From NCBI GenBank assembly GCA_040902515.1, contig JBBDXB010000006.1:66219-130218 (forward strand): a stretch of DNA of 64,000 bases. The letters are read 5' to 3'. Below the pieces are notes generated by a model. It was not told the DNA's origin and did not search any database. It worked only from the letters and a program-made list of their open reading frames with translations. The stretch comes from Patescibacteria group bacterium (GTDB lineage Bacteria > Patescibacteriota > SICC01). Positions 12,442 to 32,031 of this stretch are shown here, in pieces (position 1 is the stretch's first letter; each line of letters begins with the position of its first letter). The position numbers and the translations under genes are program-made.

Positions 12442-13290
12442 CTACTCCAGCGTGAACGTTTGGATAACCTGGTCGTAGAGCTTACGGTTCGGCGAATCCT
12501 GGACCTGCTGGAGCAGGAACGCCTGGCCCTTGCCGGTCACGATGGTGATCAAGTACGGCACGAAGCCGTATGGGGTCTCATACTGGTAGCCGGGGCGTTC
12601 GTTCACCGTAATTCCTCGCTGCTCGATCGCGGCCTGGTCCTCGTGCGGATATTCCTCGCGCGCCTTGTACCAGGCCTCCGGACCGAGGTTCTTCGGGTTT
12701 CCCTGGACGAGAATGGTCAGCGGTGCGGTATGCTCCCCTTCGTCATGACCATCCTCACCATGGTCATGGTCTTCCTCGGGGCGCGGACCGCTTACCTCAT
12801 AGAACACGACGACCTCGGACGACTGTTCCCGCGGTTCCCAGCGGGACGGGTACCGGATGCGATATCCGTACTTGGCGTTCCGGTACGTCTTAAAGTCATC
12901 CGCGGATTCGTCCGTGACGGTCTCGCCGTCGCGCACGAACGTGTGTTCGATCACCGCCGGCTGGTCCTCGAACACCTCGATGGGAATCTCCGCCTCGTCA
13001 TAGCCGGCGAGTTGCAGTGTGACCTCGTGTGTCCCGATGCCTACTTCGATCTTGGCATCGCTGCGCTCGGATCGTTCCTTGCCGTCGATCAGGATGGTGG
13101 CGTTATCCGGGTCGGTATAGATCTCGATGATGCCGGTCTTGGCGTCTTCCGCTTGCTTGACCGACGGCTGCTGCGCCAGGAAGAACAGAGCCGCCCCTGC
13201 GGCAACCACGGTGGCGATGGACGTCGCCCCCCAGAACTTCCGTCGCTTATAGAGCGGTACGCGTTTCTTTTTCGCGGTTTTGGTTTGCAT
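12442..13290 (-). CDS. Membrane-anchored extracellular protein with a PEGA-like domain and a His/Asp/Glu-rich segment
   Basis: N-terminal TM helix, a beta-rich PEGA-like stretch (VTLQLAGYDEAEIPIEV), and an acidic HDHGEDGHDEGEH cluster. Confidence 0.5.
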   Translation of the reverse strand: MQTKTAKKKRVPLYKRRKFWGATSIATVVAAGAALFFLAQQPSVKQAEDAKTGIIEIYTDPDNATILIDGKERSERSDAKIEVGIGTHEVTLQLAGYDEAEIPIEVFEDQPAVIEHTFVRDGETVTDESADDFKTYRNAKYGYRIRYPSRWEPREQSSEVVVFYEVSGPRPEEDHDHGEDGHDEGEHTAPLTILVQGNPKNLGPEAWYKAREEYPHEDQAAIEQRGITVNERPGYQYETPYGFVPYLITIVTGKGQAFLLQQVQDSPNRKLYDQVIQTFTLE

Positions 13291-13343: not shown

Positions 13344-14609
13344 TCAGGACGGTCCGGGCCAGGACAGGGTGCGTCCTGCGACGGTCAACGTGGCGCCCGG
13401 TCCGGCCCCCAGCTTCTCCAGGCGGGCATCGAGGCCGAGCCGCCGGGCCGTCCACCAGAAACGTTCCACGGCTTCCGGGTTCTCGAAGTCGGTCTGGGTA
13501 GCCAAACGTTCCAGCCGGGGTCCGCGGACGATGAATCCGTCCCCGTCCGGTTCGACGCTCAAGGATCGTGGCGCCAGCTCCGCCAGGCCGATGCGGGACA
13601 CCGGCTCTTTCCGGGCTTTCGTCCGGTGCCGCTTCGCCAGCGCGGCGGCTTCCGTGAGCAGGACGTCCACGCCGGTCCCGGCGGCCGCCGACACGGCGAA
13701 CACCGGTTTCCGGATCCGCCGGGAAAGGCTTTTGGCCGCCTCCGCGGCCGCTTCCGCCGTCAGCGCGTCGACCTTGTTCAGCGCCACGACCTCCGGCTTC
13801 CGCGCCAGGGTCCGGTCGAATGCCGTGAGCTCCTTCCGGACGCTCCGGTAATCCGCCGCCGGATCTTCGGCGGTGACGTCGAGCAGGTGGACGATCGCCT
13901 TGGTCCGTTCGATGTGCCGGAGGAAGGCGTCGCCAAGCCCCTTGCCCCGGTGGGCACCTTCGATCAGCCCGGGGATGTCGGCCAGCACCAAACGCTGTCC
14001 GCCGGTCATCGCGATGCCGAGGCCCGGCACGGTGGTCGTGAACGGATAGTCGGCGACCTTGGGTTTGGCCGCGGTCACGCGGGACAGCAGCGTCGACTTG
14101 CCGGCCGACGGCACGCCGACCAGCCCGATATCCGCCACCAGTTTCAGTTCCAGTTCGAGTTGTTTGGCCTCGCCGGGCTCGCCGCGCTCGGCCAGCCGGG
14201 GCGTCTGCCGCCGGGAGCTGGTGAAATGGGCGTTGCCGTACCCTCCCGTACCGCCCCGGGCCAGGACCGTCCGTGCGCCCGGTTCGTCGAGGTCGGCCAG
14301 CAGCGCGCCGGATTCCCGGACCACGGTTCCGACGGGCACCTCAAGCACCAACTCGTCCGCCGATTTGCCATGGCGTTTGCCCTTCCCGCCGGGGGCGCCG
14401 GCCTTAGCCGCGAACGTCTTTTTCCGCGCGTACTCCGCCAGCGTGTTGATACCCGGATCGGCGACCAGCACCACGCTCCCGCCGTCACCGCCGTCACCGC
14501 CGTCGGGACCTCCCCGTGACTCACCGCGGGCGTGACGGAAGCTGATCAGCCCGTCACCGCCCTTGCCGGCACGAACGTCGATATCTACCTGGTCCCAGAA
14601 CGTCGCCAT
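13344..14609 (-). CDS. obg: GTPase Obg/CgtA
   Basis: Gly-rich Obg fold N-terminus (GGDGGDGG), G1 GLVGVPSAGKST, G3 DIPG, G4 NKVD, and a C-terminal OCT/TGS-like extension. Confidence 0.9.
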   Translation of the reverse strand: MATFWDQVDIDVRAGKGGDGLISFRHARGESRGGPDGGDGGDGGSVVLVADPGINTLAEYARKKTFAAKAGAPGGKGKRHGKSADELVLEVPVGTVVRESGALLADLDEPGARTVLARGGTGGYGNAHFTSSRRQTPRLAERGEPGEAKQLELELKLVADIGLVGVPSAGKSTLLSRVTAAKPKVADYPFTTTVPGLGIAMTGGQRLVLADIPGLIEGAHRGKGLGDAFLRHIERTKAIVHLLDVTAEDPAADYRSVRKELTAFDRTLARKPEVVALNKVDALTAEAAAEAAKSLSRRIRKPVFAVSAAAGTGVDVLLTEAAALAKRHRTKARKEPVSRIGLAELAPRSLSVEPDGDGFIVRGPRLERLATQTDFENPEAVERFWWTARRLGLDARLEKLGAGPGATLTVAGRTLSWPGPS

Positions 14610-14641: not shown

Positions 14642-15643
14642 TCACTGCAGGTGCTCGGTCTTGTTGGCTTCGTGCTCTTCGTCGGTCTCGGCGTAATACG
14701 TGGTGCCATCCGGCGCCGAGAGGTAAAAGAGGTACGGCGAATCGGTCGGGTCGAGCACGGCCAGGATCGCATCCAGGCTGGGATTGGCGATCGGCCCCGG
14801 CGGCAATCCCTTGAACCGGCGCGTGTTATACGGATCGTCGGTCGCCAGATCGTCGACGGTCAGCGCGTCGGTCGGCTTGTTAAGGGCATACCGCACGGTC
14901 GCGTCGATGTCGAGCCGGATGTCCTCCTCGAGACGCCGGAGGATGATACCCGCGACCAGCTTCCTGTCCTCCGTGGTCCGCACTTCTTCCTCGACCAACG
15001 AGGCGATCGTCACGATCTCATGGAGCGATCGGCCGTTGTTCGCCACCTGGTTCTGGAATCCCGCCAGTTCCGTCCGGAACTGGTCGAGCATGATCCGGGC
15101 GACATCTTCCGCCGAAGTGTCGGGGAGCGGTATCGCATAGGTTTCCGGGAACAGGTAGCCTTCGAGCGACGCGCCGTCGGGGAGGATCCGCAGGAAGTCG
15201 TACTCCGGGAAGTCGGCCGCCCGCAGCTCCTTGAATGTATCGGCATCCGTGATCTCCAACCGGTCGAGCCGCTCCGCGGTCTCAGTTTGCGTCAGGCCTT
15301 CGGGAATCGTGAACTGGGTCGCGAGCTGCGATTCTTCGGTCAGCGCCTGGGCGATCTCCTGCGCCGACTGTTCGCCGGAAAGACGGAATCGCCCGGATTT
15401 GATGTCCGTGGCCAGGCCCTCGAACTTCACGTGCAAGGTGAATGCCCGCTCGGAACGGATCAGGTCCTGCTCCTTGAGCTTTTCCGCGATCAGGTCCGGC
15501 GTATCGCCCTGCCTGACCACCACCACCGCTTCCGGGGCGCCGGTCGCCTGCAGCCCGGTCCGGTACCAGTGGACGATACCGACCGCTGCCACGATGACGA
15601 CAGCGACGCCGAGCGCGAACCGCCGGCTGTTACGCACGTTCAT
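14642..15643 (-). CDS. mltG: Endolytic murein transglycosylase MltG/YceG
   Basis: YceG-family architecture (N-terminal TM, LysM-like region, catalytic region with the E..YYF..PDGTTYYAETDEEH motif). Confidence 0.8.
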   Translation of the reverse strand: MNVRNSRRFALGVAVVIVAAVGIVHWYRTGLQATGAPEAVVVVRQGDTPDLIAEKLKEQDLIRSERAFTLHVKFEGLATDIKSGRFRLSGEQSAQEIAQALTEESQLATQFTIPEGLTQTETAERLDRLEITDADTFKELRAADFPEYDFLRILPDGASLEGYLFPETYAIPLPDTSAEDVARIMLDQFRTELAGFQNQVANNGRSLHEIVTIASLVEEEVRTTEDRKLVAGIILRRLEEDIRLDIDATVRYALNKPTDALTVDDLATDDPYNTRRFKGLPPGPIANPSLDAILAVLDPTDSPYLFYLSAPDGTTYYAETDEEHEANKTEHLQ

Positions 15644-15995
15644 TAAGATACCCCTGTAGGATCACGCGAGCGGCAGCAGCATCGCTGCCGTCTCCGCCGG
15701 CTTCCGCTTCCGTCGTGCTGGCGGTCTCGTCCTCATAGACGAACGTGGCCGGGAGGGCCAGCTTGAGCCGGGAGACTTGGTCTTCGACCCATTTGGCTTG
15801 CGGTCCCAGCCCGCCGGAGAGCGTCCGCGGCCGACCGACGACTACCGTGGAGATGCCGCCCTTGACCAGCTTCCCCAGTTCCTCGGCCAACCGGTCGGTC
15901 GGCACCGTCGTCAGCGGACGGGCCGTGATGCCTGCCTCATCGGAGACGGCCAGGCCGCTGCGCGCTTTCCCGAGGTCTACCGCGACGATCCTCAT
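15630..15995 (-). CDS. ruvX: Holliday-junction resolvase-like RuvX/YqgF (pre-16S rRNA nuclease)
   Basis: RNase H-like fold with N-terminal MRIVAVDLG and conserved acidic residues, 121 aa, overlapping mltG. Confidence 0.8.
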   Translation of the reverse strand: MRIVAVDLGKARSGLAVSDEAGITARPLTTVPTDRLAEELGKLVKGGISTVVVGRPRTLSGGLGPQAKWVEDQVSRLKLALPATFVYEDETASTTEAEAGGDGSDAAAARVILQGYLNERA

Positions 15996-17848
15996 GTGCC
16001 CGGCGTCACCCCTGGAGACGGGCTGGCGCCGGCCGCCGGACGTGCTTCCAGCCGCACGCGGACCTTGCCGGCATCCCCCGGCACCGACCGGACCCAGAAC
16101 GGCGACAGGTCGACGGTCGCGCCGGTCGCCTTGCCGGTCTCCCTGATGATCCGCTCCGCTTCCTCCTTGCTCTTGCCGGCGATGTCCCGGGCGATCCGCT
16201 CCGCCGAAATGCCCGATGCCGTGAAGGTGTCGACGACCAGCAGGGTGCTCAGTTGCGCGGCGGACCGTTCCTTGACCCGGAACGTCTCGGACCGTTCGTC
16301 AACGAGGTTCGTACCGCCGGGAATCTTGGCCTCAAGGTCACCGTCCAGTACGCGCTCGAGGACATCCTCTTCGTACGAGAAGTAGGTGATGCGAGCACGG
16401 CCGCTGATCGTGAATCGCTCGGCCGAAGCGCCCACGTCGGGATCGGCTTCGCTATCCAGCACGGTTACGGCCGCGACTTCCGGATTCACCACGTGGTCGA
16501 CCGCCGTCCTGTTCTCGGCCTCCTCGAGTCCCTCCCGGGCAAGGTGTTGGCCGAGCTGGGTCCGGGCCCGGTCGATGTCCTCACGTGAGATGGTCGTGCT
16601 GTCGGCATCCGTGCCGCCGGTCAGCGGCTCTTCGATCTGGCCGTAGACCGCGGTCGTGCTGCGGAGTCCGGGTATCGAAAGCCTGGTGTCCGCCGGAAGG
16701 TTGCCGTCGGTGCCGCCTTCGTCCGCCACCACCTGCACGGTGGTCGTGCCGCCGGCCGGCACGACGATGCCGGACTGGGAACGGAAGAGTCTGCCATCAG
16801 GAGCCTGGAAGCGCGTCCGGATGACCAACGGTTGGTTCCGGTTGAGTTCGTTGACCACGGTGATCTCACCGCGGGCCGATTCGCCACCGATCGAACGCCC
16901 GGTGGCCCGGGCTTCCAGCGAACCCTCCCGGGTGACTTCGATGGTCTTGGCGGGGACCACGTTTTCCTCGGCATCGGCTTGGGGCGCGGTCGTCGAGAAC
17001 CGTACCGGCACTTCCGCCTTGAACGGTTCCGTCTTGGGGACGATCGTCACCGTCGCGCTCGGCAACATCACGGCCGCGGCCGTGCCGCCGGTCAGGATAA
17101 TCGCGAGTGCGGCGACCGCACCGATCAGTTTCCAACGCCGCCGGCCCTTCCCGGCACCCTTCCATCCCGACATCCGGAACTTGGGACGGGAGAACCGCGG
17201 TAGTCCCGGCAGTGCGAACCTGAACCGCTTGCCGGATGACCGTGACTCGTCCGGCGCCGGCGCTTCGTCCTGGCTGGCGCGGGTCACGGGGATCGTCACT
17301 CCTGGGGACGCGTCCGGAGCCGTCGCTGCCTCGGGATCGGATTCCGGCTCCGTATCCGCAGGGCTGACCGTTTCGACAGGTTCCGGTTCCCCCGGATCAG
17401 CGCTGGCCCCTTCAGTCGGGACACCGGCTATCTCCCGCTTCACCAGCTCGGGATCCTTGCCTTTCTTGTAGCCGATGTCGGCGCCGCCCGCCTCGTCCGA
17501 CGGTTTCTTCGGTTCCTCCGGCTGCCGCTTCTTGAATCCGATCCGCACCGGTTCACCAGTCTCCTTGACCGCCGACTCCTTCACCGCCTTGCCGCCTTCA
17601 GGCAGCTTCTGGTGCACGGTCAACCCGACTGCCGAGGCCAGGTTGCGGCCGGTCTTGTCGCTGGTGACGATGCTGATCCGTTTGCCCTGTTGCTCAGCCT
17701 GGTATCGGAGCAGCTTCAGGTTGACGATGCTCTGCAGGAGCGCCGCCCGCTTGGGCACGATGATCGCCACGTCCTCGTCGTCCAGCTCCTTCAGGCGGTC
17801 GACGACGCTGGTAATCTCCTCGTCTGGCTCTAGGTATATCGCTTTCAT
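15992..17848 (-). CDS. Bitopic membrane protein of unknown function: ~70-aa conserved N-terminal cytoplasmic module, low-complexity Pro/Glu linker, single TM, ~350-aa extracytoplasmic domain
   Basis: 618 aa with a TM at WKLIGAVAALAIILTGGTAAAVML. It lies 6 nt downstream of the ftsA-like gene, in the position where ftsZ normally sits. Confidence 0.5.
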   Translation of the reverse strand: MKAIYLEPDEEITSVVDRLKELDDEDVAIIVPKRAALLQSIVNLKLLRYQAEQQGKRISIVTSDKTGRNLASAVGLTVHQKLPEGGKAVKESAVKETGEPVRIGFKKRQPEEPKKPSDEAGGADIGYKKGKDPELVKREIAGVPTEGASADPGEPEPVETVSPADTEPESDPEAATAPDASPGVTIPVTRASQDEAPAPDESRSSGKRFRFALPGLPRFSRPKFRMSGWKGAGKGRRRWKLIGAVAALAIILTGGTAAAVMLPSATVTIVPKTEPFKAEVPVRFSTTAPQADAEENVVPAKTIEVTREGSLEARATGRSIGGESARGEITVVNELNRNQPLVIRTRFQAPDGRLFRSQSGIVVPAGGTTTVQVVADEGGTDGNLPADTRLSIPGLRSTTAVYGQIEEPLTGGTDADSTTISREDIDRARTQLGQHLAREGLEEAENRTAVDHVVNPEVAAVTVLDSEADPDVGASAERFTISGRARITYFSYEEDVLERVLDGDLEAKIPGGTNLVDERSETFRVKERSAAQLSTLLVVDTFTASGISAERIARDIAGKSKEEAERIIRETGKATGATVDLSPFWVRSVPGDAGKVRVRLEARPAAGASPSPGVTPGT

Positions 17849-17854
17849 GTTTGA

Positions 17855-19126
17855 TCAGGTTGTCATCGCCTTCACGGCACGTCGCAATATCGATGGTAGC
17901 AGCTCCTCGGGGCCCGCGAGATCCAGCGCCAGGTTCGCGAGCGCCATCGGCGTCACGTCCTGCGGACCGGTCAGGCTCCGGGTGTGGTCCTTTACGTTCG
18001 GAATGTCCTCCGGACGGATGAAGTTGACCGTCGGTTTCTTGGCGAACGGAAGCTGTTTATACCATTTGGCGCCGTTCAGCACCTTGGAGACCTCGGGCAG
18101 TTCCGAGCCGCCGCCGCAGAGCAGGATCCGGGCCGGCAGCAGGTCGAGGTTGCCGAACTCCGAGAGCGTGAGTTGCACGCCGGACAGCCAGACGTCGGCA
18201 TCCGCGGCGACGGCCTCCTTCACGAGCTTGGTGGAAGGCTGATCGAGCAATTGGCTGGTGTAGGCCAGCTTCACCTCTTCCGCCTTCTCGAACGGCGAGT
18301 TGAGCGCCTGCGCGAGCCGGCGGGTGAACGTGCGGCCGCCGAGCGCGAACATCTTGGTGCCGACCACGCCGCCGTTGCTGACCACCGCCACGTCGGTGGT
18401 GCCGCCGCCGATGTCGATGAACACCGCCGAGAACTCGGTCTGGTCCTCGATTCCCAGGCAGCGCGCTACCGCGTACGGCTCCGCCGCGATCGAGAGCAGG
18501 TCCAGCCCGAGCTCCTCGGGAATCGCCTGGAGCGCGGTCAGGTGCACGAGCGGCGCGAACGCGTTGAAGATCCCGATCGTCACGTCCTTGCCCTGGAAGC
18601 CGACGGGGTTGGTCACGCGGTAACCGTCGATCCGGACGTCAACGATCGCCGCGTTCACCAGCTTCACGTCAATCTCCGCGTGGCCGGTCTCCCAGGCAAG
18701 CTGCTGGCGCACCTGGTCGAACGCCTTCCATTGCACCTTATGCACGATGTTCTTGAGTTCGGTGAGGTCGATCTTGGTACTCGGCTTGGCACGCTCGTAA
18801 TGGACGGTGGTGGTCGCGCCCTTCACCAGTTCGCCGGCGATGCCCATCACCACCTGTTCCGGCATCACGCCGGCCATCTGCTGCGCCCGTTCCAGTGCCT
18901 TCTCGCAATTCTCGATCACGCCGCCGATGTCGGTGACCGCGCCGCCCTGCATGTCGCCGAGCCGCTGGCGCTGCCGACCGCTACCGATCACCACTGCCTT
19001 GCCATCGACGATCTCACAGATCAGCGCTTTCACGAACTCGGTACCGATGTCGAGCGCGATAAAGTAGTTCGAGAGCGTCTGGTTCGAACCCGCGAAAACC
19101 GAACCGACCTTGTCGAGCAGGCCCAT
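17855..19126 (-). CDS. ftsA: Actin-like ATPase of the FtsA family (cell division protein FtsA-like; PilM-like not excluded)
   Basis: Phosphate-1 motif LDIGTEFVKAL and phosphate-2 FIDIGGGTTDVAVV, with a length (423 aa) typical of FtsA. Confidence 0.65.
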   Translation of the reverse strand: MGLLDKVGSVFAGSNQTLSNYFIALDIGTEFVKALICEIVDGKAVVIGSGRQRQRLGDMQGGAVTDIGGVIENCEKALERAQQMAGVMPEQVVMGIAGELVKGATTTVHYERAKPSTKIDLTELKNIVHKVQWKAFDQVRQQLAWETGHAEIDVKLVNAAIVDVRIDGYRVTNPVGFQGKDVTIGIFNAFAPLVHLTALQAIPEELGLDLLSIAAEPYAVARCLGIEDQTEFSAVFIDIGGGTTDVAVVSNGGVVGTKMFALGGRTFTRRLAQALNSPFEKAEEVKLAYTSQLLDQPSTKLVKEAVAADADVWLSGVQLTLSEFGNLDLLPARILLCGGGSELPEVSKVLNGAKWYKQLPFAKKPTVNFIRPEDIPNVKDHTRSLTGPQDVTPMALANLALDLAGPEELLPSILRRAVKAMTT

Positions 19127-19216
19127 CAGGCAGCGTGGTTATGGTGTTGATGTGTCACCCGTCCATTGTAGCGGGCGGGCGGGCTTCGGCCAGAGAAAGT
19201 CCCCAATCATTGCACG

Positions 19217-19681
19217 ATGACGTCCCCGACCATAAACTGGGTTGTCATGGACCATCCTGAACCGCACCCCACCGAAGCCCTGGAGCAGGCACTCAGCGCG
19301 CACCTGGAAGCGCTGCGGGTAGCAACTCATTGCTACGATCACGAACACGCCAAGGAAATCGCCGGGGAGCTGGCGACGTACGGTCAGCCGGACGAGTTCC
19401 GCTTGGAAGGGCTGTTCGCGCTCGGTGAACTGGCCGAGCAGGAACACGAGTTCGACGAGGCACTCGCGTTCTATGAGGAAGCACGGCAGCTGGCGGTCAG
19501 CACCGAAAGCTATGAACGTGCCGCTGACATCCAGCGATCGGTCGGCTGGCTGTACCGCAACCAGCTCGGGGACCGGGAGCGGGCCCGCGAAGCATTCATG
19601 GCACGAAATGAATACTCCCGGGCCGCGAAACGGTTCCCGCCGCGGCGATTCGGGCGGTTGGTTTCCCACGACGACGATTAA
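19217..19681 (+). CDS. Hypothetical cytoplasmic helical (TPR-like) protein
   Basis: 154 aa, Glu/Ala-rich helical repeats. It is the only + strand gene in this region. Confidence 0.4.
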   Translation: MTSPTINWVVMDHPEPHPTEALEQALSAHLEALRVATHCYDHEHAKEIAGELATYGQPDEFRLEGLFALGELAEQEHEFDEALAFYEEARQLAVSTESYERAADIQRSVGWLYRNQLGDRERAREAFMARNEYSRAAKRFPPRRFGRLVSHDDD

Positions 19682-19743
19682 TCGCGGGCAAAAGAAAAAC
19701 CGCCCCGGCATCTGGTGTGATGTCGGGACGGGTGCCCGTGCGG

Positions 19744-20208
19744 TCATGTATCGGCAGGTCGGGAGTTCGCAACGGCGCGCTTGATGATGCCGCGATGCGC
19801 CGCCACTTTCCGATCCGAAAAGGACTCGTTGACGCGACGGACCGCTGCGGCCAGGATCAGCAGATGCTCCTTCTGCACGGAGACCTCCTCCGGCCGTACG
19901 ACCTCCAGGGCCAGGTAGAGAGCAGGGCGGCTGTGGAGGAAGTCTTTCTTGTCGTCGAACAGGCGCTTCATCAGCGCGTATCGGACGTACTGGACGCGGG
20001 CCTCGTGGAGTACCTCGGGCGTCAATCCGAGCGCACCCGGCGTGACGCCGTGTGCCAGCGCATTGTCGATACCGATGATCGCGTGCTCGTCCCGGTCGAC
20101 GATGCGTTTGGCCCAGCGAAGCTCCTTCTGATTCGGCTTCATCGGGGCAACTGTTGCCATGGCTTTCCTTTCGTCGGGTGAAAGTGCGGTATCCCATGCG
20201 TCATGCAT
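19744..20208 (-). CDS. Hypothetical protein
   Basis: A 154-aa ORF between ftsA and alaS on the same strand, with no motif recognised. Confidence 0.4.
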   Translation of the reverse strand: MHDAWDTALSPDERKAMATVAPMKPNQKELRWAKRIVDRDEHAIIGIDNALAHGVTPGALGLTPEVLHEARVQYVRYALMKRLFDDKKDFLHSRPALYLALEVVRPEEVSVQKEHLLILAAAVRRVNESFSDRKVAAHRGIIKRAVANSRPADT

Positions 20209-20251
20209 CGCGCATAAGACACCTCAGCATAGACGAGGCCGTGCGGCTTGC

Positions 20252-22072
20252 CTACTCGACGATCGCTTTGATCCGCCGCACGCCGGCGCCGACGGACTCC
20301 TGTTTCTTGATCCTGAACGTGCCGATCTGACCGGTGTGTTCCACGTGCGGTCCGCCGCAGAATTCCATGGACCGGACGCTGTCCGGATCGCCGATGACGT
20401 AGACGGAGACGATGTCCGGGTACTTGTGCCCGAATTCCATCTGCGCGCCGAGCCGCTCCGCTTCCTCACGCGGCATCTCCTTGCGGGTAACCGGCAGGTC
20501 CTCGCGGATCCACTCGTTCACCAGCGCCTCGACTTGGTTGAGTTCCTCCTCCGCAAGCTTCTCGGGATGCGCGAAGTCGAAGCGGAGCCGCTCCGCGGTG
20601 ATGTTGCTGCCGCGCTGCTTCACCTGGTCACCCAGTACGTCACGGAGCGCCGCCAGCAGCAGGTGCGTGGCGGTGTGTTGCCGGACGACCTTCTCGGAGT
20701 GGTCGGCGAGGCCGCCGGCGAACTTCTGCTTGGCGCCGGCACGGGACTTTTGCTGGTGGGCTTTTTGAGCTTTGTAAAATTCTCCTTCAACCCTTCTGTG
20801 ATTTACGGTAATGCTACGGCGTCGTAGTTCTTCGATACTAACTTCCAGTGGAAATCCATACGTCTGAAATAAATCGAAAAGAATTGCGCCACTCGTAAAG
20901 ACTGGCAGTGTTTGGGGCGTAAACTTTTCACGAAATTCCCGTTCAAATTCATCAAATTTTCGCAGTCCTTTGGTCAGAGACTTATGGAACTTCTCTTCTT
21001 CCTTGAGTAGCTCATCCCGGATCGTCTTCGCCTCGCGCTCAAGCTCCGGGTACGCATCCTTGAACTTTGCTACGACGACCTCCGCGACCGATTCACTGAA
21101 CGGATACTCGATCTTCAGGAGTCGTGCCTGCCGCACCGCCCGGCGGACCAACCGCCGCAGGATGTAGCCGCGGTCCGTGTTCGATGGTCGCACGCCGTCC
21201 GCGATCATGAACGTCTCGGCTTTCAGATGGTCCGCGATGATCCGTTCCGCCCGGACCAGCTCCGGGTTGTCCTCGTGCCGCTCCTTCACGTTCGCGAGTT
21301 TCCGGATCCGCTCGATGATCGGCGCGAACAGGTCGGTCTCGTACACGTTCCGCTTCTGCTGCAATACCACTGCCAGCCGCTCGAGTCCCATCCCAGTGTC
21401 CACGTTCTTCTGCGCCAACGGTTCGAACGCGCCGTCCGCCGTCTTCTCGTACTGCATGAAGACGTTGTTCCAGACCTCCAGCCAGCGATCGTCCTCGGCG
21501 GGCTCGGATTCGGGAGCGCCCTTACCGATCCAGTAGAATATCTCGGTGTCAGGGCCGCACGGGCCGGTCTCACCGGCCGGTCCCCACCAGTTGTCTTCCT
21601 TGCCGTAGAAGAAGATCCGATCCTTCGGCACGCCCTGCGTTTCCCAGAGCTTCGCGGCTTCTTCGTCCTTCGGGACGCCAGGTGTGGCTTTATCGCCCGC
21701 AAAACACGAAACGGCGATTTTATCTTTCTCAAGCCTGAGATTCTCCGTCAGCAGCTCCCAGCTCCAGGCGATCGCCTCTTCCTTGAAGTAGTCACCGAGC
21801 GACCAGTTGCCGAGCATCTCGAAGAACGTGAGGTGCGATTCGTCGCCGACCTCGTCGATGTCCACGGTGCGGATGCACTTCTGCGCGTCCGCCAGGCGCT
21901 TGCCGGCCGGATGCGGCTCGCCGAGCAGGTACGGCACCAGCGGGTGCATGCCGGCGGTCGTGAAGAGGACCGTCGGATCGTGCTGCGGTACCACCGGCGC
22001 GCTCGGGATGATCGCGTGCCCGCGTTCCTCGAAGAACTGCAGGAACGTGTTCCGAATGTCGGAGGCTTTCAT
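20252..22072 (-). CDS. alaS: Alanyl-tRNA synthetase, short form (606 aa) ending right after the editing domain, so it lacks the C-Ala domain
   Basis: N-terminal class II catalytic core (FTTAGM, LGNWSLGDYFK), editing-domain HxxxH/CGG motifs (HTATHLL; CGGPHVEHTGQIGTFRI...GVRRIKAIVE at the very C-terminus). Confidence 0.85.
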   Translation of the reverse strand: MKASDIRNTFLQFFEERGHAIIPSAPVVPQHDPTVLFTTAGMHPLVPYLLGEPHPAGKRLADAQKCIRTVDIDEVGDESHLTFFEMLGNWSLGDYFKEEAIAWSWELLTENLRLEKDKIAVSCFAGDKATPGVPKDEEAAKLWETQGVPKDRIFFYGKEDNWWGPAGETGPCGPDTEIFYWIGKGAPESEPAEDDRWLEVWNNVFMQYEKTADGAFEPLAQKNVDTGMGLERLAVVLQQKRNVYETDLFAPIIERIRKLANVKERHEDNPELVRAERIIADHLKAETFMIADGVRPSNTDRGYILRRLVRRAVRQARLLKIEYPFSESVAEVVVAKFKDAYPELEREAKTIRDELLKEEEKFHKSLTKGLRKFDEFEREFREKFTPQTLPVFTSGAILFDLFQTYGFPLEVSIEELRRRSITVNHRRVEGEFYKAQKAHQQKSRAGAKQKFAGGLADHSEKVVRQHTATHLLLAALRDVLGDQVKQRGSNITAERLRFDFAHPEKLAEEELNQVEALVNEWIREDLPVTRKEMPREEAERLGAQMEFGHKYPDIVSVYVIGDPDSVRSMEFCGGPHVEHTGQIGTFRIKKQESVGAGVRRIKAIVE

Positions 22073-22123
22073 ACTCTCTAGCTTACGTTCGTTGTTTGCG
22101 TGAAGCGAGAATAAGTCAGCACA

Positions 22124-23860
22124 TCAAAACTGCGTCAAGTCAATCAAATACTCTTTCGATCCGGGCATGGGTTTGTAATGCGGCGGTTCCAACGGACACA
22201 TTAACTCAAAAGCCGGTAAAAGCGGCCAGCAACTTTCCAGCACGGGCACCACCCCATTCATCCGTCGCTGTACCGCATGCTCATAGAAGCCATTGCGATC
22301 GAGGAACCGGTGCTTCAGCGGCTTCGCAAGCACCAGATCGCGAAATCCTCCCGACACCATCGATAACCCTGTTGCGTGCGACGCCATAAACGCTGACAAC
22401 ATCACGGGAGTGCTGGGCGAAACCTGCCGAATCGCTTTCGTCAGCAACTTGAGGATAGCGCTGCTCGTATAACGCGGGGCTAAACCGAAAGTGTAGAGCC
22501 GTGTGGATTCAACCGCGTTGTCGATAGGGAATCCCTGATAGAGCAAGGCATCCTCTTTGTATTCCCGATTTACTCTGGCAGCCGAGATTACGGAAAAAGG
22601 CAGGCTCGCTCCCTTTGCAAACAGACCGAAAGCCCAATCGGCTCGAGGAGAGTGGATGTAATGCAATGAGGCATGTATAACCCTTGCCAGCTCTATCGGT
22701 ACGGGCCTGAATTCGAGTGGAACGAAGCCGCCCCGCTGCTCAGCGGCTCCCAGTTCTCCACCTACCCGGTGAATATGCCAGGTACCTTCAGTAAAATTCC
22801 TGTACTCCCCTTCAATTTCCGACACGAGAGAACTGACGACTTTCAGGCGTTGCTCAACCAAAGCCAGCTGTTCTTCGGCAATGTTCTTAAGCACTTCGGG
22901 CTTCAGCCGATGCTGCGCGATTTTCTCAGCGGACAGCCGCGTGATATTTGACCAATCATTGAAAGCGCCTGCATCGGTAAGATACTCGGCGAGCACGGCA
23001 CCATCGGACACGGCTTTTTCAAACGGAATCGTCGTAAGCCGAAAGGCGATTTGATACTTAAGATCCGTCCTGTCGGCATGTTTCGGCAGCTTCAAATTCC
23101 GCACATAGGAGCTGATTTGTCCCTGCGCCCACCGCATGAGCGGGTCAGTCGGCCAATTCTTGACGGTAGGTTTGGGAGTCAGCTTCGTTCTTCCCTCGAG
23201 GATCGATTTGCGTAAGTTCGTACGACGACTATGGGAACGCTCGGCTTGGGCCATGGCCAAGACCAGACGTGAGAAAAAAGTGTCCAATGGGTACAGGGGA
23301 ATTCGCCAATCCGATCGTTCGCAACATGACCCGGCGGAACCCTTGGGGCAGATATGTATACGATGCCAGCCAGGAGGAAAGTCGGTGGCCTGATTAGCCA
23401 GTAACGCGATGCCTTGGTTGGTGGGTAACCGCCCCAGTGCTCGAGTTACCAACGAATATGCTTTTGCATAGTGCTCGGAGAGGTCCGGGTACTCCATGGC
23501 TTGTCTTTTCAGAGCACCCGCCGTGACTTGTAACGCCTCTTCTTCCGTAAGAAGACAATCATCCGTACGCAGTTGTTTCATCGCACGCCGCGATGCCTGG
23601 CGAGAAGCACCCTCTGTAAGGCCAAACTCCCGGAAGCGCTTCGCCATACTAGGCACCAAAGCATTAAGCCAGATAAGACGATACCCTGTCCTCGGAAAAA
23701 CCTTGGAAAGCAGTCGTGCCGCATTATGCTGTTCGGCTCGTTCACAGACCAGGATAAGGTTTGCCCGGCGAACCAAAGTGCCGGTTGGTGGAGCCGTCCC
23801 GGACGTCGTCAGGTCGGTTTCCATTGGCCGCTTAACCATCGGACCGCCTTCCGGTCTCAA
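22124..23860 (-). CDS. Large orphan protein (578 aa), no recognisable domain; third gene of the low-GC island
   Basis: A long ORF with normal amino-acid composition and lower-GC codon usage than its neighbours. It overlaps the upstream Ham1-like gene by about 29 nt. It contains the Cys cluster HICPKGSAGSCCERSDW. Confidence 0.55.
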   Translation of the reverse strand: MRPEGGPMVKRPMETDLTTSGTAPPTGTLVRRANLILVCERAEQHNAARLLSKVFPRTGYRLIWLNALVPSMAKRFREFGLTEGASRQASRRAMKQLRTDDCLLTEEEALQVTAGALKRQAMEYPDLSEHYAKAYSLVTRALGRLPTNQGIALLANQATDFPPGWHRIHICPKGSAGSCCERSDWRIPLYPLDTFFSRLVLAMAQAERSHSRRTNLRKSILEGRTKLTPKPTVKNWPTDPLMRWAQGQISSYVRNLKLPKHADRTDLKYQIAFRLTTIPFEKAVSDGAVLAEYLTDAGAFNDWSNITRLSAEKIAQHRLKPEVLKNIAEEQLALVEQRLKVVSSLVSEIEGEYRNFTEGTWHIHRVGGELGAAEQRGGFVPLEFRPVPIELARVIHASLHYIHSPRADWAFGLFAKGASLPFSVISAARVNREYKEDALLYQGFPIDNAVESTRLYTFGLAPRYTSSAILKLLTKAIRQVSPSTPVMLSAFMASHATGLSMVSGGFRDLVLAKPLKHRFLDRNGFYEHAVQRRMNGVVPVLESCWPLLPAFELMCPLEPPHYKPMPGSKEYLIDLTQF

Positions 23861-24494
23861 AGAACGTACGAATCGCTTTCTCTAGGCGGTCCCAGGAAAC
23901 TTCCCCTTTGGCCAGCTCGCTTGGCGATAAGTCGAAGAAGTTCTTGCCGAATTGCGGGTAATACCAGAGACTGCAAAGCCAGATTCCCGGCCTGTACTTA
24001 CGACGATCGTAGGATTCCTGCATGATCCCTTTGGAACCATCGACCTCCAGTGAAAAGATCCGCTTCCCTTTGTGGGCGATGGCGGCTGCTTCCCGCCAAA
24101 TCATTTTCCGTTCATCGCCGCGCTTGTCCTTCATAAGCTCAAGGATCGCGTCGAGCCGTTCGAAATCCGTGGCGTTCTCTCGGTTGATGAAACGCCTGGT
24201 GAAAAGTTTATTCCATCTACTGCCCAGAGCAGGAATGTCAATTCCGCCGTCTGTAGCAATGGCATATCCGTCGTACCGCTTGGAAAAAGTAACCGCTTTA
24301 TCCGTCGCGATACTTTCGAAACTTTGTCCTTCTTCATTCAACTCAGCAGAGATGGACGTGTCTTCCAGTCTTACCGGCTCGAAGTATCCGCTGACAATCC
24401 GTGAGAGTTTTTGGATTTTGTGCGGATTGGTCGTGCCTAATAAGATGGTTCTGGTCACAGTCGTACCGCTACATTTTCTTCTAGTAATCGCCAA
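23832..24494 (-). CDS. Ham1/ITPase-family non-canonical purine NTP pyrophosphatase (RdgB-like). The true start is probably internal (around VTRTILLGTT).
   Basis: Motifs GTTNPHKIQ (compare TGNxGKLRE), ATDGGIDIPALG (compare ADDSGL.VDALxGxPG), and a C-terminal W..YYPQFGKNFFDLSPSELAKGEVSWDR (compare GFGYDPIF...EEKN..SHR). Confidence 0.7.
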   Translation of the reverse strand: MAITRRKCSGTTVTRTILLGTTNPHKIQKLSRIVSGYFEPVRLEDTSISAELNEEGQSFESIATDKAVTFSKRYDGYAIATDGGIDIPALGSRWNKLFTRRFINRENATDFERLDAILELMKDKRGDERKMIWREAAAIAHKGKRIFSLEVDGSKGIMQESYDRRKYRPGIWLCSLWYYPQFGKNFFDLSPSELAKGEVSWDRLEKAIRTFFETGRRSDG

Positions 24495-25054
24495 TTCCGG
24501 CTAAATGTCTCCGGGGTATTGTTGATGCGAACGAAACGCGCGCCAACATACTCTGCTAGATACGCTGTGGCAGCCCTTGCGATATCCTGGTGAAGGCCGA
24601 TTGTGGTTGAATCTTCCGGATCACGGTCGCGCGTGGTGTCGCACGCACGCCAGTCAGCAATTTGTTCAGGATCAGCTTCAATGAACGCATAAACGTTCGC
24701 GCTAATCTGCTGTTCAATTTTTGGGTTGATTACCAGTGATTCACCTTGCCTGTACAGTACATGAGTATTTAGCACGGCTGGACCCCTGCTTCGGATGTCA
24801 CAAGCCAGCTCTTCGATGATTCGGTAGAGCTCGCTTTGGGGAATCTCCTGAGAGATTCGATCACGGTCAGAAAGTGATGGCCTAAGCGCCTGGGCTCGTT
24901 CGAACAGCTCTTGGCCGAAATTAACTACCTCTACCGAAAGTTTACTCTGGTCTCGAAAAGCCTCGATCAAGTAATCTTTCCCTGATCCAGACACACCTGT
25001 CACAACCATAAGAGGATTGCGTTCGTCGGGATTTGATGGGTTCTCAGGAGTCAT
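24455..25054 (-). CDS. Archaeal-type adenylate kinase (AdkA-like NMP kinase)
   Basis: P-loop VTGVSGSGKD and strong similarity along its length to archaeal AdkA (VLNTH..., FIEADPEQIADWRACDTTRDRDPEDSTTIGLHQDIARAATAYLAEYVGARFVRINN versus the archaeal [22 protein letters not shown]...). Low GC. Confidence 0.7.
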   Translation of the reverse strand: MTPENPSNPDERNPLMVVTGVSGSGKDYLIEAFRDQSKLSVEVVNFGQELFERAQALRPSLSDRDRISQEIPQSELYRIIEELACDIRSRGPAVLNTHVLYRQGESLVINPKIEQQISANVYAFIEADPEQIADWRACDTTRDRDPEDSTTIGLHQDIARAATAYLAEYVGARFVRINNTPETFSRNWRLLEENVAVRL

Positions 25055-25118
25055 GAAAACTAACGATAGTGGCCGTTAGTTATACAACCATGCTTACCAC
25101 AAGTCAACGATAAGCTGG

Positions 25119-25451
25119 CTACTCGTCCTTGCGCAGAATCCGCCGCTTCTCCTTGGCGGCTTCTCTCTTACCCTCACCGGCGGCGTCCTTGATGTCTACG
25201 ATCACGCCGTCCGCGGCTTTCCGGACCTGCGCGACGATCTCGTCCACCGACCGGCCCTGCCTCAACTGTTCGAATTTCTGCTTGGCCTGCTTGCGGGTCT
25301 TCTCGCCCTTATCCGGCGCCAGGAACGCCGCGGCCGCAGCGCCAAGCGCCGCACCGACCGCAAAGCCCGAACCGCCTCCGCCCGACCGCTGGTGCGGACA
25401 GTCCTTGCAGTTGCATTCGTGTCTATGACTCATCGCCCCCAGTATACGCAA
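25119..25451 (-). CDS. Small YtxH/DUF948-like protein (Cys/His-containing N-terminus, Ala/Gly hydrophobic segment, Lys/Glu-rich helix)
   Basis: 110-aa ORF whose pattern (CNCKDCPH, GAALGAAAAAFLAP, charged C-terminal helix) is typical of general-stress YtxH-like proteins. Confidence 0.45.
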   Translation of the reverse strand: MRILGAMSHRHECNCKDCPHQRSGGGGSGFAVGAALGAAAAAFLAPDKGEKTRKQAKQKFEQLRQGRSVDEIVAQVRKAADGVIVDIKDAAGEGKREAAKEKRRILRKDE

Positions 25452-25550
25452 ACGCCTGTCGCTGGTGAAACGCTATTACTGATGAGCGAGGTGCATCCCA
25501 ACGGTTGGAGCACTGAGCGTAGCGTTGAGCCGGTGACAGACGTTTGCGTG

Positions 25551-29717: not shown

Positions 29718-30866
29718 CTACCGGATCCACCGTACCCCCAGGCTCATCGGTACCGCCAATCCGATCAGCACCAGCAGGGCGGTTTTCTCGGGAAACACCT
29801 GCAATAAGGCCAGCAGGACGCTCAACTGTACGGTCAAGCCGATCGCATGGCTGGTCTCCATGCCCACGATGTACTCCAACCGCGGATCTCGGTCGGCGTG
29901 CTTGTAGTAGCGGCTGAGGTAAGACGTGCTGAGGAGCGATTGCCCGAGTCCGCTGATCAGGTTGATGCCTGCCACGTGGGTCGTGGACGTGGCAAACAGG
30001 CGGAACAGGTGGGTCCCGGACATCGTCGCTGCTCCCCGGCGCAGGTAGCGTCGCTCACCGTGGCGCTCTTCGCGCCGTCCCACGGACAGCGCCACTGCCG
30101 CGGCACTGAGCACCGCGAGCGAACTGAGTGCGCCGATGCCCGCGTACGTCGGGATGATCAGGAAGATCAGGAGCGGCCAGAGTATCCCTTCGATCACGTA
30201 GTACGTGCTGTGGGTGAAGTTGGCCGCGAAGTCGGGAACCATCCGGCGGCTGAAGTTGCGGAGCCGGATCGGCCGGTGCTTCACCACGTCGGGCGAGTTA
30301 AGCAGGATCACCGAGGCGGTCAGCATCAGGCCGGCCGCGATACCGTAGACCAGCCCGATCCCGAATACCGTGGCCAGCACACCACCGAGGGCCGGCGCCA
30401 GTCCGTGCGCCGCGATCACGACGGCATTCATCGCACCGACCTGCCGCCCGCCGCGGCGGTGCGCCTTCACCTTCGAGAAACTCGCGTGGAACGCCGGCCA
30501 GTAAAAGGCCCTGTCGGCTGCCTTGAAGACCGCAGCAAACCAGATCGGTAACCCGAGTTCCGGCAGCAAGAACAGCGAGATGAAGAACAGCGCGATCCAC
30601 AGTTCACCGAGCGCCATCACCCGGTTGGCATTGATCCGGCTGATCAGCCACCCGGACACGCCGTACAGCGGGACGGAGATCACGAACGCGATCAGGAAGA
30701 AAAGGATGACCTGCTCCACCGAGTAGCCGATCTTGAGCAGGTAGACCGGTGCCAGCACTTGGACCGAGGCCGCTCCCAATGCCGCCAGGCCGTGCGACCA
30801 ATAGAGATGGCGGAGTTCCGTCAACCGCGGCGTGTGGTAGTGGCTATGGTGGGCGAAGTTGAGCAT
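29718..30866 (-). CDS. MFS-type transporter, paralog 1 of 3 (His-rich N-terminus HHSHYH)
   Basis: About 12 TM helices, 382 aa, with a conserved N-terminal block shared by the two upstream paralogs (..H.H.P.L.E....YWSH). Confidence 0.6.
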   Translation of the reverse strand: MLNFAHHSHYHTPRLTELRHLYWSHGLAALGAASVQVLAPVYLLKIGYSVEQVILFFLIAFVISVPLYGVSGWLISRINANRVMALGELWIALFFISLFLLPELGLPIWFAAVFKAADRAFYWPAFHASFSKVKAHRRGGRQVGAMNAVVIAAHGLAPALGGVLATVFGIGLVYGIAAGLMLTASVILLNSPDVVKHRPIRLRNFSRRMVPDFAANFTHSTYYVIEGILWPLLIFLIIPTYAGIGALSSLAVLSAAAVALSVGRREERHGERRYLRRGAATMSGTHLFRLFATSTTHVAGINLISGLGQSLLSTSYLSRYYKHADRDPRLEYIVGMETSHAIGLTVQLSVLLALLQVFPEKTALLVLIGLAVPMSLGVRWIR

Positions 30867-30871
30867 GGCTG

Positions 30872-32026
30872 TCAGCGGATCTTCGTGATCAGGTAACTCA
30901 TCGGGATAGCGAAGAGGATGCCTGCCAGGAGCACTTCCCGTTCGGCGAGGCCGGGCAGCAGCAGCGTCAGCACCAACAGCAGCCCGAACGCGATGATCCA
31001 GGCGACCGCGCTCACCAGCTGCATCATGAACAGATACGGCAGCCCTCGCCGCTCGATGTTCTCATAGTAGGTCGTGTTGAACGCGGTGTGATACAGCGAG
31101 TACCCCACGCCCGACGCCAGGTTGATGGCGAACACGTGTGAACCGCTGATGGTGAACACCCGCAGGAAGTGTCCGAGACCGTTGATGGTAGCACCCTCAT
31201 TGACGTAATGACGCACGCCCTTGGTCTCTTCGCGGGTACCCACGTACAGCGATACCACGATCGACGTGAGAATCAGCACCGAACTCAGCAGGCCGACGCC
31301 GGCATAGCTTGGGATCACGAAGAACACGAAGAGGGGCCACGTCTGGTTAAGCGTCCCGTCGTTGTACGTCTCGGCAAGGTTGGCGATGAAGTCGCTCCGG
31401 TACTTCTTCAGTTTCCGCCAGGAAAGCTTGAACGGCTGGTTCCTGACGAAGGTCGGCCCGCCGAAGAGCGGCGCGGCGGCGACCACGAACAGTGCGATCG
31501 AGGCGATGTACAGCGCGTCGATCCCGAACTCCGTGGCGACCAGGCCGCCCACCGCCGGGGCGACGCCGACCGCCAGCATCTGCGTGCTGCTCCATACGCC
31601 GACCAGCCGACCGGTGCGCCTGTGGGCGAGATTGGCCGCAAAGGCGCCGCGGAAGGCCGGCCAGTAGATCGAGGTGTACCACGCCCAGGCGAACGCGATG
31701 ATCCAGAGCGGCCAGTGGTACGTCGGCAGCGTGAGAAGCAGCAGGAACTGCATGACGTTGCCGACCATGCTGATCACCATCAGGCGGGTCGCTCCGAATC
31801 GGTTGATCAGGCGCATCATCGGATAGATCAGGAAAATCCAGAAGATGCCGCCCAGCAGCAGGTACTCGAAGATCTGGGACAGCGTGTACCCGAGCTGGTA
31901 CAGGTAGATCGGGATGAAGATGACGACCAGGTTCTCCGCCAGGGAGCGGATGCCGTGCGCCCAGAACAGCTCTGTGATCCCTTGCAGGCGCGGGGCGTGG
32001 TAGTGATGGTGAAGGATACTCTGCAT
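30872..32026 (-). CDS. MFS-type transporter, paralog 2 of 3 (N-terminus HHHYH)
   Basis: 384 aa, the same topology and conserved blocks as its neighbours, with a 5-nt intergenic gap. Confidence 0.6.
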   Translation of the reverse strand: MQSILHHHYHAPRLQGITELFWAHGIRSLAENLVVIFIPIYLYQLGYTLSQIFEYLLLGGIFWIFLIYPMMRLINRFGATRLMVISMVGNVMQFLLLLTLPTYHWPLWIIAFAWAWYTSIYWPAFRGAFAANLAHRRTGRLVGVWSSTQMLAVGVAPAVGGLVATEFGIDALYIASIALFVVAAAPLFGGPTFVRNQPFKLSWRKLKKYRSDFIANLAETYNDGTLNQTWPLFVFFVIPSYAGVGLLSSVLILTSIVVSLYVGTREETKGVRHYVNEGATINGLGHFLRVFTISGSHVFAINLASGVGYSLYHTAFNTTYYENIERRGLPYLFMMQLVSAVAWIIAFGLLLVLTLLLPGLAEREVLLAGILFAIPMSYLITKIR

Positions 32027-32031
32027 ACGTT

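Follow-up and report, generated by a model that had tools for sequence, protein, structure and literature searches.

A conserved pair of an FtsA-like ATPase and a membrane-anchored, baseplate-J-like partner in Patescibacteria

Introduction

Actin-like ATPases that work with a bitopic membrane protein are known from three bacterial couples, FtsA–FtsN, MreB–RodZ and PilM–PilN. FtsN touches FtsA through a short basic peptide. RodZ has a folded cytoplasmic N-domain of ~80 aa, followed by a disordered segment, a transmembrane (TM) helix and an outer domain, and PilN binds by an N-terminal peptide ~20 residues before its TM helix and carries a small ferredoxin-like periplasmic domain. Baseplate wedge proteins, a further point of reference for what follows, form rings in phage tails (T4 gp6). 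Here we describe a gene pair that recalls all of these, in a 64,000-nucleotide stretch (the window) of a Patescibacteria group bacterium (contig JBBDXB010000006.1 of assembly GCA_040902515.1): an FtsA-like ATPase followed 6 nt on by a bitopic membrane protein, hereafter the ATPase and the partner. The Patescibacteria, or candidate phyla radiation (CPR), make up much of bacterial diversity; next to nothing is known of their cell biology.

The pair resembles FtsA–FtsN (structures 7Q6D/F/G/I) in that the ATPase has an actin fold, finds its best models and structures in FtsA and ends in a predicted amphipathic membrane helix, and in that the partner is bitopic, its cytoplasmic N terminus being joined by a flexible linker and a single TM helix to a folded domain outside the membrane. 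It differs in that the ATPase scores below the FtsA cut-off, does not lie beside ftsZ and coexists with a canonical FtsA; moreover, unlike FtsN, the partner has a folded cytoplasmic domain of 80 aa on a tether of ~155 aa, and its ectodomain is baseplate-J-like instead of SPOR. As with MreB–RodZ, a membrane-associated actin homologue is combined with a bitopic protein that has genetic links to wall enzymes, MltG among them, but the cytoplasmic domain has no sequence or fold relation to the helix–turn–helix (HTH) domain of RodZ, and the ATPase falls in the FtsA/PilM branch. The PilM–PilN couple shares the arrangement of an FtsA-like ATPase, with a putative 1C-type subdomain, directly upstream of a bitopic partner, and some orthologues of the ATPase are named PilM; however, the ATPase scores only 23–28 bits on PilM models, no pilN, pilO or pilin gene is nearby, and CPR genomes own separate bona fide PilM–PilN–PilO sets. 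Finally, the partner is like the phage wedge proteins (P2 gpJ, Mu gp47 and T4 gp6; PF04865) and the GlxA barrel (PF21110) in its barrel at sequence level and, for most baseplate matches, in long structural-alphabet (3Di) alignments of the ectodomain, but it is anchored in the membrane and has a cytoplasmic domain, and its gene stands in a housekeeping operon that contains no further tail genes.

Both genes are already in databases, where they have been flagged as CPR-enriched and carry inconsistent labels ('FtsA', 'PilM', 'baseplate J' or 'hypothetical'). The module as such is uncharacterised, its candidate docking domain is new and its ectodomain is baseplate-like. The pair is discussed neither in the main text of the genome-wide study of the cultured Saccharibacterium Southlakia epibionticum (Wang et al. 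2023; PMC10633639) nor in Meheust et al. 2019, and a literature search on FtsA-like, PilM, baseplate J and actin-like proteins of the CPR found no paper that discusses it. Recognizing a third FtsA/PilM-type system would prevent the CPR divisome from being mis-scored, and an actin-like protein with its own transmembrane linker is a hypothesis that can be tested by genetics in S. epibionticum or TM7x.

The ATPase is a third FtsA/PilM-type paralogue

The sequence-only reading of this DNA had placed the partner in the position normally occupied by FtsZ, next to an FtsA-family ATPase in an obg–mltG–ruvX–alaS neighbourhood. The two open reading frames (ORFs), both nucleotide-binding motifs and the neighbourhood, whose named genes are all on the minus strand, are as it described, and the two genes share a frame across the 6-nt spacer (...AMTT*SNMKAIY...). 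The placement relative to FtsZ, by contrast, does not hold. In S. epibionticum (Tables S1 and S2 of PMC10633639), the syntenic locus runs from alaS (SEML1_0657) through 'pilus assembly protein PilM' (SEML1_0656), 'baseplate J/gp47' (SEML1_0655) and RuvX (SEML1_0654) to MltG (SEML1_0653), a LysM protein (SEML1_0652) and Obg (SEML1_0651). The same genome has an essential ftsA–ftsZ pair, with FtsZ SEML1_0175 directly after the canonical FtsA SEML1_0174, as well as SEML1_0104, the PilM of a type IV pilus, which has a PilN-like neighbour (PMC10633639). Because the syntenic locus coexists with both, the ATPase is a third FtsA/PilM-type paralogue across the CPR, distinct from divisome FtsA and pilus PilM, and FtsZ has not been replaced. 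The canonical SEML1_0174 carries PF14450 twice plus an SHS2 domain and is parsed as Thermotoga maritima FtsA, and SEML1_0656 (427 aa; KEGG K03590), encoded next to the 556-aa SEML1_0655, carries PF14450 only (PMC10633639). TM7x, too, has its annotated ftsA (TM7x_02800) at a distance from ftsZ (TM7x_00785), and its two pilus loci come with PilM1 and PilM2 of their own. That the ATPase is both a third paralogue and dedicated to the partner is very probable.

Family models put the ATPase closest to FtsA, although below the cut-offs: it scored 110.5 bits on TIGR01174 (ftsA; equivalog cut-off 175.85), 64 bits on NF007009 (cut-off 409) and 58 bits on PF14450 (FtsA). PilM models gave 22.9 bits (PF11104; cut-off 27) and 27.9 bits (TIGR01175; cut-off 133), both sub-cut-off, and MreB models gave 30–40 bits. 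The published tables for S. epibionticum carry no annotation of MreB, MreC or RodZ (PMC10633639). Among PDB sequences, the best matches were FtsA structures (E 1e-18 to 3e-12), aligned over residues 21–289; EutJ (5e-10), PilM (1e-8) and MreB (2e-7) were weaker. On these scores the ATPase is FtsA-like more than PilM-like; a PilM-like system was the alternative that the sequence-only reading had offered.

The nucleotide-binding motifs DIGTE, DIGGGTTD and LCGGGS are invariant in the aligned members of the ATPase family. The ATPase has more than 8,000 matches; the best 120 share 62–93% identity and include sequences from CPR2 and Gracilibacteria. In a 20-sequence alignment across CPR lineages, mean column identity was 69%. 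The most conserved stretch, residues ~100–195, is spanned by the alignments to Escherichia coli and Xenorhabdus FtsA and may be an inserted subdomain of the 1C type; SHS2_FTSA (PF02491) found no match in the ATPase at E up to 0.1. For the S. epibionticum orthologue, residues 21–225 were parsed to Staphylococcus aureus FtsA (3wt0), and its fold matches carry the name 'SHS2 domain-containing' (PMC10633639). At the C terminus, the helical hydrophobic moment peaks at residues 410–420 with 0.75, the maximum of the protein (95th percentile, 0.58), and the tail is kept as LLPSILRKVVKxMQT across the CPR. We presume this helix to be a membrane-targeting sequence of the FtsA kind.

The partner joins a new cytoplasmic module to a baseplate-like ectodomain

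An identical copy of the partner protein (100%) in GCA_040881485.1 bears the name 'baseplate J/gp47 family protein'. Hydropathy and an AlphaFold2 model that drew on 65 homologues confirmed the architecture predicted from the letters and gave its parts as a cytoplasmic N-terminal module (N-module) of 80 aa, a linker of ~155 aa, one TM helix and an ectodomain of ~340 aa (Table 1). The N-module is modelled as an α/β fold with four strands and either three or four helices. Its alignment has 15 invariant columns; the invariant motifs are YLExDEEITS, QSxVNLKLL and D64. The invariant positions fall in loops that follow strands 1, 2 and 3, which would be the usual binding edge of such folds. At E up to 1e-3, a profile of the module retrieved 3,431 cluster representatives (clusters of 50% identity). 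The module is N-terminal in all of the best 150 of these 3,431, and the proteins are mostly ~520–680 aa, the remainder being shorter, presumed fragments.

The N-module matches none of the known families. Pfam gave no match with one member or with 23 members, a profile search of PDB sequences gave none, and Foldseek returned generic β-α-β fragments and unrelated folds, with a best E of 0.014. The partner has no HTH or RodZ family match, and PADLOC reported nothing of note for the pair or the N-module. The sequence-only reading would have been refuted, by its own terms, by a match to a known unrelated domain, and the one such call that exists is a published DPAM parse of residues 6–105 of the partner orthologue as 'SpoIIaa-like', with a score of 0.888 (PMC10633639). 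We do not adopt a STAS/SpoIIAA-like identity: the DPAM call is its sole support, and hhalign, Pfam and Foldseek gave no confirmation. An hhalign comparison with a hand-entered sequence of Bacillus subtilis SpoIIAA had a probability of 0.1%, and the STAS protein TM1081 (2ka5) was at rank 24 in the fold search, with TM-scores of 0.52/0.41. A PilN-like identity of the partner is also unlikely, as the architecture is wrong.

The linker resists alignment across lineages. Directly ahead of the TM helix (residues ~200–235; 17144–17250), many homologues carry two to six tandem hydrophobic-Pro-Lys/Arg/Ser repeats, for example LPKVSVPKLAVPKLSVPKL, and in 40 of 68 homologues the 45 residues before the helix contain two or more hydrophobic-Pro-x repeats. 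The Lys/Arg-rich stretch that precedes the helix has a net charge of +6 over its last 15 residues, a positive excess that indicates an N-in orientation.

In the ectodomain, the barrel matches PF04865 (Baseplate_J) with 25.9 bits against a cut-off of 21.1, over 93 of 255 profile positions; distant homologues match the GlxA barrel PF21110 instead. Against solved structures, the family profile found GlxA (4unm, 3e-9) and Mu gp47 (1e-7). Foldseek matched the ectodomain to PDB baseplate proteins (phi812, A-1(L), Pa193, Mu gp47 and diffocin) with E of 5e-8 to 2e-4; the probabilities were 0.97–1.0 and the alignments mostly spanned 325–370 columns, but the TM-scores were only 0.14–0.25 and the root-mean-square deviation exceeded 20 Å. 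The matches in the viral structure library BFVD were also Baseplate J-like proteins, and the published parse of the orthologue lists a barrel, a G3P-like domain and a 'gp6 C-terminal domain III' (PMC10633639). The domain composition thus appears to resemble that of wedge proteins, but given the TM-scores a wedge-like arrangement of the whole ectodomain is not established: the similarity may be limited to single domains, or the arrangement may differ.

Table 1. Coordinates of the gene pair, its parts and the adjoining genes in the window (pLDDT, predicted local distance difference test)
Feature	Position	Strand	Basis or remark
FtsA-like actin-fold ATPase gene, 423 aa	17855..19126	minus	ORF; motifs DIGTEFVKAL and DIGGGTTDVAV
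Phosphate-1 nucleotide-binding motif DIGTE, residues 26-30	19037..19051	minus	D26, G28, T29 and E30 invariant (alignment)
Putative 1C-type (SHS2-like) inserted subdomain, residues ~100-195	18542..18829	minus	Long runs of invariant columns (alignment)
Phosphate-2 motif DIGGGTTD, residues 238-245	18392..18415	minus	D238, G240, G241, G242, T243 and D245 invariant
Predicted C-terminal amphipathic helix LLPSILRRAVKAM, residues ~407-421	17864..17908	minus	Hydrophobic moment and conservation
Bitopic membrane partner gene, 618 aa	15992..17848	minus	ORF; NCBI name 'baseplate J/gp47 family protein'
Cytoplasmic N-module, residues 1-80	17609..17848	minus	pLDDT 93-98; invariant motifs
Disordered linker, residues 81-235	17144..17608	minus	Pro/Gly/Glu/Ala/Lys-rich; pLDDT <50; ends in Lys/Arg cluster
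Single TM helix, residues ~236-262	17063..17143	minus	Hydropathy peak 239-267; model helix 236-260
Extracytoplasmic multi-domain module, residues 263-603	16040..17062	minus	pLDDT 90-98; resembles baseplate wedge (J/gp47/gp6 type)
β-barrel, Baseplate_J/GlxA type, residues 324-417	16598..16879	minus	PF04865
ruvX	15630-15995	minus	4-nt overlap with partner gene
mltG (YceG family)	14642-15643	minus	Downstream, same gene string
obg	13344-14609	minus	Gene string beyond mltG
alaS	20252-22072	minus	Upstream neighbour of the pair, conserved across the CPR

The pair is conserved as a unit across the CPR

All homologues of the partner come from Patescibacteria/CPR assemblies, the closest being labelled Saccharibacteria or Saccharimonadia. 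Scanning one genome per species, we found relatives in 351 species genomes, spread over Saccharibacteria, Berkelbacteria, Moranbacteria, Portnoybacteria, Paceibacteria and other Parcubacteria. Two loci with CPR-type synteny, L051 and L077, are labelled Bdellovibrionales and Magnetospirillaceae and are probably mis-binned CPR contigs. Across 80 independent species-level loci, the ATPase gene lies upstream of the partner gene on the same strand in 78, at a distance of up to 200 nt in 71 and with small insertions of up to 2.5 kb in seven, an association well above what chance would give. One of the two unpaired loci has no upstream sequence, which leaves L009 (8000–11716) as the sole true exception; here, ORFs of 161 and 211 aa stand before the partner homologue in place of an FtsA-like gene. 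The co-conservation on which the sequence-only reading had made its case depend is therefore borne out, and the partner is not sporadic.

What surrounds the pair changes from lineage to lineage. In CPR2, where the N-module is 51% identical, and in Saccharibacteria, the pair is found with ruvX, mltG, LysM-CHAP and obg; in Gracilibacteria (N-module 57% identical), ruvX and an FtsQ-type POTRA protein lie downstream, with a penicillin-binding protein (PBP) transpeptidase nearby; and in Moranbacteria, the operon rpsM-rpsK-rpsD-rpoA-rplQ comes next after the pair. As the surroundings differ in this way, the pair itself is the conserved unit. The Gracilibacteria locus L083 (1–7786) has a PBP transpeptidase fragment upstream and ruvX and the FtsQ-type POTRA gene downstream, the most division-like context that we saw, and a 178-aa ORF without family match between the ATPase and partner genes.

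Conservation is distributed unevenly. Over 70 distant loci, the ATPase had a median identity of 59% and the N-module one of 49%, compared with 45% for AlaS, 32% for RuvX, 31% for MltG and 24% for the ectodomain. The pair is among the most conserved lineage-enriched genes of the CPR, with an ATPase more conserved than AlaS. Since both cytoplasmic parts are unusually conserved and the ectodomain is at 24%, the N-module looks constrained as if it touched the ATPase.

An ftsZ-like tubulin signature is absent from the 64-kb window and from the 80 species loci, and the gene calls of the CPR2 and Gracilibacteria loci contained no ftsZ. The ATPase gene is the only actin-fold gene in the window, and no pilus genes were found in the window region or in the loci examined. 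The GC content of the pair is that of its surroundings. The overlapping ruvX is probably on one transcript with the partner gene; no terminator-like sites were found between the partner gene, ruvX, mltG and obg. A promoter and terminator scan over 12–22.5 kb yielded counts that match the shuffled expectation and is hence uninformative.

The partner is required for growth of S. epibionticum

In the only genome-wide screen available, transposon sequencing (Tn-seq) of S. epibionticum, the partner is required for growth (PMC10633639). SEML1_0655 was called non-essential, essential and essential (NE/ES/ES) at successive time points and assigned to class II essential genes, with normalized reads of 373, 34 and 24; the ATPase SEML1_0656 was NE/NE/GD (GD, growth defect), with 2427, 660 and 221 reads (PMC10633639). 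RuvX was NE/ES/ES and MltG non-essential, and SEML1_0655 and SEML1_0656 were both flagged as core, Patescibacteria-enriched families (PMC10633639).

A proposed membrane-spanning module and its alternatives

The pair may be a dedicated two-component module, found CPR-wide, that spans the cytoplasmic membrane and links an actin-like ATPase to the envelope. We give this reading an even chance; it is proposed because the anatomy of the pair is that of the known couples of an actin-like ATPase and a bitopic partner, FtsA–FtsN, MreB–RodZ and PilM–PilN. In such a module, the ATPase would be held on the inner membrane face by its C-terminal amphipathic helix and would probably oligomerize there, as its cytoskeleton-like conservation suggests. 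The N-module would dock onto the ATPase, and the flexible tether and single TM helix would join it to the baseplate-J-like ectodomain in or on the cell wall. As the cell grows or divides, the module could then relay positional or nucleotide-state information from the membrane-bound actin-like assembly out to the envelope. An envelope context is consistent with the genes that adjoin the pair, mltG and LysM-CHAP in CPR2 and Saccharibacteria and the PBP transpeptidase and POTRA protein in Gracilibacteria. The sequence-only reading had suggested a lineage-specific divisome or cell-envelope partner of FtsA. Its envelope half, a partner of an FtsA-like protein, stands because of the FtsA-like scores, the non-sporadic occurrence of the partner and the unmatched N-module, whereas its divisome half, an FtsA with a substitute for FtsZ, falls with the status of the ATPase as a third paralogue.

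Several points weigh against the membrane-spanning module. Conservation is the single observation that points to polymerization of the ATPase, and we know of no role in cell-wall metabolism for baseplate-J-like ectodomains. On the gene order in Bacillus, alaS-yrzL-yrrK-yrzB-yrrL, the genes alaS–ruvX–mltG form an old cluster that is conserved in other bacteria and that the pair has entered; adjacency to mltG may therefore be inherited and is weak evidence of function, and Parcubacteria and Moranbacteria lack the linkage to mltG. Part of the partner's Tn-seq phenotype could be a polar effect on ruvX, itself called essential, and the ATPase showed a growth defect only, at the last time point only, and so is milder than its partner (PMC10633639).

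A more specific form of the membrane-spanning module, in which the ATPase paralogue is a third, universal actin-like cytoskeleton of Patescibacteria that assembles on the membrane and organizes an extracellular ring or lattice of a domesticated or ancestral baseplate-wedge fold through the tethered docking domain, is doubtful. Were this form to exist, it would be an unrecognized cytoskeleton-to-envelope machine, perhaps one behind the unusual budding or division cycle of these ultra-small episymbionts or their cell-surface architecture. The pair also raises the question of how a baseplate-wedge fold was turned to a cellular envelope function, or the reverse.

The main rival casts the pair as the base, in cytoplasm and membrane, of a structure on the cell surface, for example an appendage, an adhesion or a host-contact platform, with the ectodomain oligomerizing outside into a wedge or ring platform and a PilM-like ATPase organizing the inner face. 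The ectodomain's only relatives are baseplate wedge proteins, NCBI labels the S. epibionticum ATPase PilM, and the partner is essential only in outgrowth on the host (class II; PMC10633639), all of which would fit. We nevertheless consider a surface structure unlikely: none of the ~85 loci links the pair to a structural gene, be it for pilin, tube, sheath, secretin, PilN/O or another component, the contexts of the pair are housekeeping ones (alaS, ruvX and a ribosomal operon), FtsA models give the ATPase four times the score of PilM models, and the pilus loci of TM7x have PilM proteins of their own.

Next in rank is the possibility that the two genes are co-transcribed without forming a complex. 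The N-module would then be a small domain that binds a ligand or switches partners (STAS-like) to regulate some other process, and the ATPase would act alone, for example as a second FtsZ tether. The loop positions of E7, D9, T13, S14, Q39, S40 and D64 would suit the usual ligand site of a Rossmann- or receiver-like fold, and the DPAM call (PMC10633639) and the rank of TM1081 in the fold search lean the same way. The hhalign probability for SpoIIAA and the generic fragments returned by Foldseek do not, and independence of the two proteins sits poorly with an ATPase-then-partner order that is kept in 78 of 80 loci as other neighbours vary and with cytoplasmic parts that are similarly, and unusually, constrained. 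Such independent function is, in our judgement, rather improbable.

It is very unlikely that the ATPase is the divisome FtsA and that the 618-aa protein acts in the place of FtsZ as its divisome partner, and for Saccharibacteria this is largely refuted. Some pipelines do label the gene 'cell division protein FtsA' (KEGG K03590; TM7x_02800), and ftsZ was not found nearby; yet the FtsA score is below the cut-off, there is no SHS2_FTSA Pfam match, the gene named ftsA in TM7x is distant from ftsZ, and the cultured relative with the same locus has its canonical, essential ftsA–ftsZ elsewhere (PMC10633639). Hardly credible at all is a prophage-tail or contractile-injection remnant with an incidental ATPase neighbour, which the Baseplate_J and baseplate fold matches might suggest, as the housekeeping operon has no other tail genes, matches the surrounding GC content and gave no PADLOC matches of note, the synteny is conserved CPR-wide with relatives in 351 species genomes, and a TM anchor and cytoplasmic domain are unlike virion proteins.

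Genomic surroundings of the pair

Between alaS and the ATPase gene, the window has a variable insert of 1.1 kb (19127–20251) with a TPR protein gene on the opposite strand to the pair (19217–19681) and a 154-aa ORF without family match (19744–20208). In the relative locus L006, alaS is only ~90 nt upstream of the FtsA-like gene. On the other side, the gap between mltG and obg is 32 nt in the window, and CPR2 and S. epibionticum carry a LysM-CHAP hydrolase gene there. A gene for a PEGA-domain membrane protein (12442–13290) adjoins obg.

Upstream of alaS, the stretch at 22100–25500, between alaS and mnmA, has a GC content of 54–57% compared with ~65% around it and is possibly an inserted island; alaS and mnmA are adjacent in S. 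epibionticum (PMC10633639). The stretch encodes a 578-aa ORF with a TTG start and no Pfam or PADLOC match (22124–23860), a Ham1-like NTP pyrophosphatase (23832–24494), an AAA_17 kinase-like protein (24455–25054) and a YtxH-like protein (25119–25451). Further along, three paralogous major facilitator superfamily (MFS) transporter genes (382, 384 and 386 aa) stand in tandem on the minus strand at 29718–33192.

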